Shown: positions 11,992 through 14,435 of the stretch, piece by piece
How the letters are laid out: every line of letters begins with the position of its first letter
Numbering within the stretch: position 1 is the first letter of the stretch
DNA from: Naegleria gruberi
Taxonomy: Eukaryota
Length of the DNA stretch: 64,000 nt
Assembly: GCA_000004985.1 (NCBI GenBank)
Contig: GG738860.1
Reading direction: 5' to 3' (one strand)
Notes under the pieces: generated by a model
The model's database searches: none
What the model was told of the DNA's origin: nothing
Seen by the model: the letters and a program-made list of their open reading frames with translations, nothing else
Program-made: the position numbers and the translations under genes

Positions 11992-14435
11992 TTATGGAGT
12001 GTGTTTAACGACATAGGCTTGCTTCTTGGTGTTTTTGTTTGTTTTTTCTTCAACTGTTTGTTTGGCTTCTTGAGTTTCTTTTAACATGTTAGCAGTTTGA
12101 GTCCAAAGAGCATTTCTATATTGAGGTGGAACTACATCTTTCAACCATTCTCCTTCAATTGAACAAATATCTCTAATATATTGCTTAGTTGTTAAAATCA
12201 TTTGATTGTACAATACACAATCTGGGAATGGGTCTACCAAAACACTGGATGGATGGACTCTGACCTCAATATTATCTGTCACTGTTTTGTACATTCTCTT
12301 GTTTGGAACTCTAACAGCAACATTTATGAAAAATCCAGAGCATAATGCTTTTCTAACCATTGCCAAATCTTTTCCACATGAGGAAATTTCATAATTTAGG
12401 TTCATTAAATAGTCTCTCAATTGTTTTCTGACATCCAATACTTTTGTCATGGATTTGTAATTGATGTAGTGGTCGAAACACCACTTCTTAATATCTTCCT
12501 TGGCACTCTTTTTTACCAAATTGAATTCTCTGAAAGCGTTCAAAAGTGTGAGTTGATCACCTGTTTTAGAGGCAAATTTCATCTTGATTTTGTTTGCTTC
12601 CTCTCTCTTATGATAAGGCGCATAGAAAATAGATTCTACAGAAAGCATTGAAACAATATCCAAAATTTCCTTTGTACATCCAAATTCTGTTGATCTCAAT
12701 AACGAAACAGCAAACATTGGTTCAAGAGGGAATCCAGCCATTTTTACACCTAGTTCAGTAAGATTACCTCTTTCATCAAGAGCACCCAAATTATAAAGTG
12801 TTTCAAGGGATTTTTTGAGAGATTCCTTTGGTGGCTTATCCATAAAATCAAACTTGTGAACCTTTTCAATACCCATAGATTTAAGTTGAAGCACAACAGT
12901 GGAAAGATTGCATCTCAAAATTTCTGGAATTGTAAAATTATCCAAGCTGTGATATGCTTCCTCGGTGTATAATCTGAAACATTTACCACTCGACTCTCTA
13001 CCAGCTCTACCAGATCTTTGTCTAGCTGAGGCCTTAGAAATTGGTGTTAACACCAGAGATTCCATTCCATTCAAAGGATTGAAAGCCTTTGATTTCACAA
13101 AACCTGTATCAATAACAAATCTAATACCATTAATAGTAATAGATGTTTCGGCAATATTGGTTGCCAAAATAACTTTTCTACATCCTGAAGGTGCTGGCTC
13201 GAATACTTCCATTTGTTTCTCTGAAGGTAAAGATGAAAAGATTGGGCAAACCATTAACTTTAAAATTTTGTAAATAAACTATCAATAATATTCAAAAATC
13301 TTACCTTAAGGGCTTCAGGAGGTAACATTTTAGCTTTTTGTTCCAGTAACTTGGCAACTTGTTCAATTTCTTCCTGACCTGTCAAGAATACCAGAATATC
13401 ACCTAATGATTCTCCTGTTGGAGATTGCTCGTCTAAATGGATTTGGAAAGTTGTTGTAATTGCAGCATCGACATAGTCAGATGTTGGTTGTTCAGTATAG
13501 TAAATATCTACAGGAAATTGTCTACCAGAAACGTATAAAATCTTTGCACTGAATTAATTATTTGGATTAAAACATAAAGATGAGAGTTGATGACTTACTT
13601 GTCATAAAATTTAGAAAATGATTGAGCTTCCAAAGTGGCACTCATGATTATTACTTTCAAATCATCTCTTTCTTTCAGTAATCTTTTAACAACTCCGAAA
13701 AGAACATCTATTTAAGAATTATCTCAATAATTTTTTTCATAAAAAACTCACCTGTGTGTAAAGTTCTTTCGTGAGCTTCGTCCAATACAATTACAGAGTA
13801 TTTTTTGAGTAATGGATCAATTTGTGATTCTCTCAAGAGCATACCGTCTGTTAAATATTTAACTTTAGTTTTATGTGGATTAGAAACATCCTCAAAACGA
13901 ATCGTGTAACCAACTTCCTCTCCCAATTTAACATTCATTTCCTCAGAGACACGTCTAGCAATTGAGATTGCAGCAACTCTTCTAGGTTGGGTAATTGCAA
14001 CACATCCCTCTCCACAAATTCCACTTTCATAAATATATTGAGGAATTTCTAAAATAATTAATAAATTAATTATCGAATAAGAAACATACGAGTTGTCTAA
14101 AAATTGTAAACTCATTTGAAAATAAAATTATTTACCTTTCCTGAACCTGTCTCACCGACAACAACTAGAGTTTTATTCTTCCTAATTTCATCAACTAAAG
14201 ATGATTTGGCTTCATAAATTGGTAATAAAGTTTTTTCCTTTTGAATTCTTAAATACTTTTCTTCCGACACTTCCGAAGTCTTTAATTTTTTAGGTGGTGC
14301 AGTTTTTATCACTTTATAACTCTCAGATTGTTGTTGATCTTGACTTTCCAATGATGATGATTTCCTTTTATTTTGTCTCCTATTATTATTATAGCTTTCA
14401 ATGCCACCACCACCACTAAATGGTAATTTTCTCAT
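11992..14435 (-). CDS. DEAH-box ATP-dependent RNA helicase (DHX family). It has six exons, one of them a 7-nt micro-exon: 14435-14136, 14096-14090, 14048-13752, 13707-13599, 13548-13305 and 13257-11992.
   Basis: Helicase motifs present: [10 protein letters not shown], the micro-exon TTQ followed by [61 protein letters not shown] and QRSGRAGR. All introns are GTAAGT/GTGAGT/GTAAAT...AG. Confidence 0.8.
14090..14096 (-). other. 7-nt micro-exon (ACAACTC) of the DEAH helicase gene.
   Basis: It is flanked by TTTTTAG upstream and GTATGT downstream on the minus strand. It supplies the missing TTQ of the GSGKTTQIPQY motif and restores the reading frame between exons 1 and 3. Confidence 0.6.

Follow-up and report, generated by a model that had tools for sequence, protein, structure and literature searches.

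A putative 7-nt micro-exon completing motif I of a DEAH-box RNA helicase gene in Naegleria gruberi

The helicase gene and its predicted product

A window of 64,000 nt from Naegleria gruberi (assembly GCA_000004985.1, contig GG738860.1), i.e. the whole stretch of DNA analysed here, contains a six-exon gene for a DEAH-box RNA helicase on its minus strand (14435-11992). The second exon of this gene consists of the seven nucleotides ACAACTC. Assembly of the six exons produces a coding sequence (CDS) of 2223 nt encoding 740 aa with no internal stops, and all five introns are bounded by GT and AG (Table 1). With a probability of about 0.93, ACAACTC is a constitutive coding internal exon that completes motif I of the helicase, the reference annotation having missed both exon 1 and the micro-exon. 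This reading is drawn from the genomic sequence and its comparison with orthologues.

Reading of the minus strand across the site gave GGT GAG ACA GGT TCA GGA AAG, then gtaaataattttattttcaaatgagtttacaatttttag, ACAACTC, gtatgtttcttattcgataattaatttattaattattttag and AA ATT CCT CAA TAT ATT. A preliminary description of this DNA had exon 1 ending in GETGSGK ahead of GTAAAT and had placed ACAACTC at 14090-14096 with TTTTTAG before it and GTATGT after it. Both statements agree with the read: exon 1 ends at 14136 with GGT TCA GGA AAG (G-S-G-K) and GTAAAT follows, and the micro-exon is flanked by a canonical acceptor AG and donor GT (TTTTTAG/ACAACTC/GTATGT, 14103-14084). Exon 3 starts from 14048 with AAATTCCTCAATAT, directly preceded by TTTTAG. 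The 87-nt interval at 14049-14135 is made up exactly of intron 1 (39 nt), the micro-exon (7 nt) and intron 2 (41 nt). The predicted spliced join, i.e. GGA AAG, ACA ACT C and AA ATT CCT, encodes the protein sequence GETGSGKTTQIPQY, and the 32-mer spanning both predicted junctions is GGTTCAGGAAAGACAACTCAAATTCCTCAATA. As had been described, ACAACTC inserts T-T-Q and restores the frame, leading to the 740-aa product in which Walker A/motif I is intact. The ATG is preceded, 6 nt upstream, by an in-frame TAA (flank gaacaataaaaa), and motif Ia (TQPRRVAA), the DEAH box and an internal ATG at 13938-13936 all lie within exon 3. G+C content is 15-26% in the five introns and 33% in the window.

Table 1. 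Exons and introns of the predicted helicase gene (window coordinates) and the corresponding site in orthologues (coordinates of the respective contigs).
Feature	Position	Strand	Length (nt)	Description
Exon 1	14136-14435	-	300	Met1-Lys100; 3' end encodes GETGSGK of motif I
Intron 1	14097-14135	-	39	GTAAAT...TTTTTAG; phase 0, between Lys and Thr (GK/TTQ)
Micro-exon ACAACTC	14090-14096	-	7	ACA (Thr), ACT (Thr), first base of CAA (Gln)
Intron 2	14049-14089	-	41	GTATGT...TTTTAG; phase 1, within Gln codon (C/AA)
Exon 3	13752-14048	-	297	5' end AA ATT CCT CAA TAT (Q-I-P-Q-Y)
Intron 3	13708-13751	-	44	GTGAGT..AAATAG; phase 1 (G/AT, Asp of HTDVLFG)
Exon 4	13599-13707	-	109	Agrees with reference protein P0122
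Intron 4	13549-13598	-	50	GTAAGT..TTCAG; phase 2 (FYDN/A)
Exon 5	13305-13548	-	244	
Intron 5	13258-13304	-	47	GTAAGA..TTAAAG; phase 0
Exon 6	11992-13257	-	1266	Includes TAA stop (11994-11992); RecA2, HA2 winged-helix, ratchet and OB domains
N. fowleri (L001), micro-exon	2471-2477		7	GGAAAG / 104-nt intron / ACAACTC / 60-nt intron / AAATTCCA
N. lovaniensis (L002), micro-exon	2461-2467		7	GGAAAG / 85-nt intron / ACAACTC / 50-nt intron / AAATCCCA
Willaertia magna (L003), second intron alone	2299-2374		76	...GGTAAAACTACTC / intron / AAATTCC
Acrasis kona (L004)				No introns
Heterolobosean-like contig (L017)				No introns

The 740-aa model matched the Pfam domains DEAD, Helicase_C, HA2_N, HA2_C and OB_NTP_bind, all above cut-offs. 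A phmmer search of the PDB retrieved DHX8, DHX16, DHX15 and Prp43/Prp22 at E <= 1e-186, and the alignment to solved DHX8 structures ran without a gap through 'getgsgkttqi', i.e. across the micro-exon junction. GETGSGKT, DEAH, RecA2, the HA2 winged-helix and ratchet and a C-terminal OB domain are all present, as in DEAH/RHA RNA helicases of superfamily 2 (SF2). In P-loop NTPases and SF2 helicases, Walker A has the form GxxxxGK[T/S], and the leading Thr contributed by the micro-exon is the Thr of this motif. The closest matches of the model were proteins of N. fowleri (86% identity), Willaertia magna (75%) and Acrasis kona (63%). A length of 740 aa, with no S1 domain found, fits DHX33/Dhr2/DEAH10, and many of the best non-heterolobosean matches are named dhr2, DHX33 or DEAH10; some matches are labelled DHX8/PRP22 instead, orthology being read from match names and domain architecture. 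On these grounds, the product looks like a DHX33/Dhr2/DEAH10-like DEAH-box RNA helicase.

Frame, alternative splice solutions and the reference model

Direct joining of exon 1 to exon 3 was ruled out, as was retention of intron 1, because of early stops: the former shifts the frame, as previously claimed, and reaches a stop after 37 codons, and the latter reaches one after 7 codons. Four candidate internal exons bounded by AG and GT are found in the 87-nt gap, ACAACTC alone being both in frame and free of stops; two of the other three were rejected for a wrong frame and one for running into a stop. The pattern AG-ACNACNC-GT, i.e. any 7-mer encoding Thr-Thr and the first base of Gln between splice dinucleotides, matched once on the two strands of the window, at 14098-14088, as compared to an expectation of 0.05 from shuffled sequences. 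Arithmetic from this expectation puts the chance of such a 7-mer on the minus strand of the 87-nt interval at ~3e-5. Inclusion of the micro-exon preserves both the frame and the conserved protein, gapless with respect to DHX8.

An in-frame protein without TTQ could in principle arise if a single intron removed the 87-nt interval, or a larger span via other splice sites, and there are 65 in-frame, stop-free GT..AG combinations between 14344 and 13775 that would allow this. All 65 were rejected, as each loses the Walker A Thr, deletes conserved residues (at least 13, including those of motif I) or inserts unrelated sequence. None can be reconciled with the gapless, collinear alignment obtained against orthologues and solved structures, nor is any of them conserved in N. 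fowleri or N. lovaniensis, the two sister species, whose deposited proteins need the micro-exon. A single intron at this site is thus scarcely credible.

The N. fowleri protein cluster includes the sole public N. gruberi model of this gene, a 'DEXH box helicase' of 601 aa from strain NEG-M (XP_002678836.1/EFC46092.1; P0122; UniProt D2VAK5) that is identical to residues 140-740 of the six-exon model. This identity assigns the window to N. gruberi NEG-M, with which the G+C content of 33% agrees. The public model starts at an internal Met (Met140, the exon 3 ATG at 13938-13936), with neither exon 1 nor the micro-exon represented and motifs I and Ia missing. The annotated protein therefore has no P-loop, which bears out the earlier remark that predictors miss micro-exons of this kind. 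Its downstream junctions are identical to those of the six-exon model, including intron 3, indicating that introns of 44-50 nt had already been accepted for this gene. An exact look-up of the 740-aa model in a collection of 15 billion proteins found it absent.

If the reference annotation were correct, the product would start at Met140, the upstream P-loop sequence would be a decayed remnant or an untranslated leader and ACAACTC would be fortuitous. Lacking motifs I and Ia, a DEAH helicase is unable to bind or hydrolyse ATP, as is established for SF2 helicases. The DEAD domain of the 601-aa model scores 22 bits, below the Pfam cut-off of 26, and the chance estimate of ~3e-5 argues against a fortuitous 7-mer with splice dinucleotides. 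Conservation across three species extends over exon 1, the micro-exon and the initial 39 codons of exon 3, and the 39 codons from the micro-exon to Met140 exhibit 8-9 synonymous-only versus 3-4 amino-acid-changing differences from the sister species, a pattern from which these codons upstream of the reference start are judged to be under purifying selection. Met1 is the only in-frame Met codon before Met140; together with the mostly synonymous change, this argues that the stretch is translated and can be reached only from exon 1 via the micro-exon. The true N. gruberi product is most likely 740 aa rather than 601 aa in length, and a genuine start at Met140 is very improbable.

Orthologues and the origin of the two introns

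A GT/GC-AG spliced aligner was used to thread every deposited orthologue protein exactly onto the DNA fetched for its locus. Comparison with orthologues, which had been proposed as a check, returned the same 7-nt exon at the same position in N. fowleri (KAF0975838.1/CAG4708923.1) and N. lovaniensis (KAG2386605.1), and the deposited proteins of both species could be obtained only by including it. In both, ACAACTC is flanked by AG and GTACGT and occupies the matching codon position (GK/TTQ/IPQ) with phases 0 and 1, as in N. gruberi. The flanking introns differ from those of N. gruberi in length (104/60 nt in N. fowleri and 85/50 nt in N. lovaniensis versus 39/41 nt) and are not alignable, such that the three-species alignment contains a conserved island, AGACAACTCGTA(T/C)GT, between introns of differing length and sequence. 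N. gruberi also differs from both sister species in having one additional downstream intron and in being the only one in which the micro-exon is unannotated.

Gene models for N. fowleri and N. lovaniensis were predicted with RNA-seq-informed BRAKER1 (PMC6125883, PMC6831594), and strain V212 was annotated by Augustus with Trinity hints (PMC8296547). These RNA-seq-guided models of the sister species provide indirect transcript support for the micro-exon. A regulated cassette was considered, in which skipping or intron retention would lead to an early stop and thereby tune helicase output (unproductive splicing). The stops after 37 codons on skipping and after 7 codons on retention of intron 1 are consistent with such regulation, as is the slightly weak GTAAAT donor of intron 1, and plant micro-exons often retain their flanking introns (PMC8831610). 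However, two independent N. fowleri annotations report the protein that includes the micro-exon, and its essential Walker A content favours inclusion as the default. Regulated inclusion is therefore unlikely and a constitutive exon is preferred.

An environmental protein of 100 aa (P0128), derived from an ENA metagenome contig of 1592 nt, is 67% identical to exon 1 and conserves the N-terminus of the helicase. Its C-terminus, ...GETGSGK-V(GTx)FIS followed by a stop, has the pattern of read-through into a GT-initiated intron at the identical site. P0128 apparently comes from a further Naegleria-like organism, as a prokaryote-style gene call that read on into its intron 1, and suggests that the exon 1/intron 1 boundary is kept beyond the three sequenced Naegleria species.

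Intron 2 has a position and phase (phase 1, C/AA in GKTTQ) that are common to the orthologues of Willaertia, Dictyostelium discoideum (L013 823-924) and Selaginella (L016 762-814), and it corresponds to the only intron of the D. discoideum gene. No intron was found at this position in the Nematostella and Spizellomyces orthologues by spliced alignment. Additionally, a genomic pattern search aimed at further Naegleria loci retrieved instead eight soil metagenome contigs (L005-L012) from GC-richer eukaryotes, which carry a DHX35-like gene reading GGCAAG ACA ACT C/gt..ag/AA ATT CCA with no first intron; the one contig checked for base composition (L007) has a G+C content of 51%. These matches were rejected as micro-exons, the 'AG' being the end of a Lys codon, but are still informative on intron 2. 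Sharing of the site across distant orthologues and a DHX35-like paralogue implies that the position is old or recurrent, i.e. either an ancient DEAH-helicase intron position or a recurrent insertion site. Between 30 and 50% of N. gruberi intron positions are common to other supergroups (PMC3174169), and intron 2 fits this pattern.

Intron 1 (phase 0, AAG/ACA, resembling a proto-splice site) was seen in the Naegleria lineage only, being absent from Willaertia, Acrasis, Dictyostelium, Selaginella, Nematostella, Spizellomyces and the heterolobosean-like contig (L017). By parsimony, intron 1 was probably gained in the Naegleria lineage at an AAG/A proto-splice site 7 nt upstream of the old intron, creating the micro-exon. 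Insertion of a younger intron a few bases from an ancient one would be one route by which micro-exons can arise.

Several observations weigh against the account given here. A search of metagenome_contigs for the spliced junction GGTTCAGGAAAGACAACTCAAATYCCNCAAT returned 0 matches, and a search of a collection of 5.8 billion proteins with the exon 1 peptide found no N. gruberi protein, and so no transcript-derived one, that covers exon 1, the sole relative being the environmental P0128. The intron 1 donor, GTAAAT, has no G at +5, unlike three of the four other donors of the gene, and introns 1 and 2 are the shortest of the five. The annotation papers for the sister species do not say whether RNA-seq hints covered the helicase locus (PMC6125883, PMC6831594, PMC8296547). 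Finally, the polarity of gain or loss of intron 1 was read from about ten taxa, and intron 1 may instead have been lost elsewhere, given that the Willaertia gene has shed other introns.

The remaining introns of the gene exhibit differing distributions. Intron 3 is present in N. gruberi and absent from N. fowleri and N. lovaniensis, which have one 406-nt exon (297+109), and on this comparison is a species-level gain or loss inside the genus. The position of intron 4 is common to N. fowleri, N. lovaniensis and the chytrid Spizellomyces punctatus (L015 1682-1737; ...GACAA/gt..ag/TGC; F-[YD]-D-N/A), and the 244-nt exon 5 and the intron 5 position are also found in N. fowleri and N. lovaniensis.

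Upstream of the helicase, ~330 nt away, is a divergently transcribed gene (~14768-15500, plus strand) with a long acidic tract, which has an NPL (nucleoplasmin-like) domain in the sister species. Downstream, an ABC1/ADCK-type kinase gene extends from ~11916 downward on the minus strand, starting ~75 nt past the helicase stop. N. fowleri and N. lovaniensis share the gene order NPL - helicase - ABC1, of which Willaertia has the NPL - helicase part. Elsewhere in the window, Rfam detected a tRNA at 34593-34681 on the plus strand (50.4 bits; 89 nt versus a 71-position model) that was not reported by ARAGORN and may be intron-containing or have a long variable arm.

Predicted splicing of the 87-nt unit and comparison with known micro-exons

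The pre-mRNA would contain five short GT-AG introns, the first two of which are parted by ACAACTC alone. Judging from sequence and comparison, excision of both would supply the Thr-Thr-Gln of motif I, including the Walker A Thr, and restore the frame. The major spliceosome presumably removes both introns by intron definition, as is typical of short-intron genomes. As only 7 nt separate the intron 1 acceptor from the intron 2 donor, removal is probably sequential: the first excision would fuse the micro-exon to a long exon and leave an ordinary short intron. The unit of 39 + 7 + 41 nt is extremely compact, making it a useful case for the study of splicing order.

Candidate branch sites consist of a yUnAy-like tttAc ~12 nt before the intron 1 acceptor and TTAAT sites before the intron 2 acceptor. 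In each of the three Naegleria species, a GATAATT heptamer occurs 14-17 nt past the donor of intron 2 (~14069-14075 on the minus strand in N. gruberi; ~2495-2501 in L001; ~2482-2488 in L002), in introns that are otherwise not alignable, and could be a splicing signal or a chance occurrence in AT-rich sequence. Folding of a 106-nt unit gave a minimum free energy of -16.1 kcal/mol (z = -2.1), marginally more stable than shuffled sequences. The main predicted helix, GAGUU/AACUC, pairs intron 1 with the micro-exon and is absent from the N. lovaniensis intron, and hence no weight is given to predicted RNA structure.

Conserved, constitutive coding micro-exons of <=15 nt, often missed by annotation, have been described in land plants (Yu et al. 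2022, PMC8831610). Like that of N. gruberi, they are very short, lie inside conserved domains and are conserved across species, and where annotation misses them the predicted proteins are wrong or lack N-terminal sequence; it has also been proposed that their flanking introns are removed in succession (PMC8831610). N. gruberi differs in belonging to Discoba and in having flanking introns of ~40 nt, and the plant cases are RNA-confirmed whereas the N. gruberi exon is predicted from sequence. Vertebrate neuronal micro-exons (3-27 nt; regulated by SRRM3/4, RBFOX and PTBP1; PMC4317164, PMC7935315) are alike in size class and exon conservation. However, they are mostly multiples of 3, alternative and tissue-regulated, and are recognised by exon definition amid long introns, whereas the N. 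gruberi micro-exon has 7 nt, shifts the frame if skipped, encodes a catalytic-site residue and is presumably constitutive in a short-intron genome. Micro-exons of <8 nt in Drosophila (PMC8042270) are likewise missed by standard mappers and predictors, but were found from RNA-seq in an animal lineage and are unrelated to the helicase gene.

A literature search for Naegleria and micro-exons found no paper describing micro-exons in Naegleria. The micro-exon is already implicit in the public CDS features of N. fowleri and N. lovaniensis, and for N. gruberi the result is a correction of the reference model. XP_002678836.1/D2VAK5, a 601-aa protein without motifs I and Ia that has spread through UniProt and EukProt, needs correction, and comparative and phylogenomic work on the N. 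gruberi proteome carries the same truncation forward. The locus illustrates concretely, in a non-model protist lineage, how gene predictors systematically lose very short exons, and leaves the current understanding of splicing or helicases unchanged.

A wider proposal is made tentatively and remains open to considerable doubt, namely that intron 1 is a Naegleria gain inside Walker A, 7 nt upstream of an intron position shared with Amoebozoa and plants, and that the resulting 87-nt unit is too compact for two spliceosomes and is spliced in a fixed order. If this is true, the 87-nt unit would be a natural minimal model, in a deep-branching eukaryote, for the recognition of a micro-exon through intron definition.

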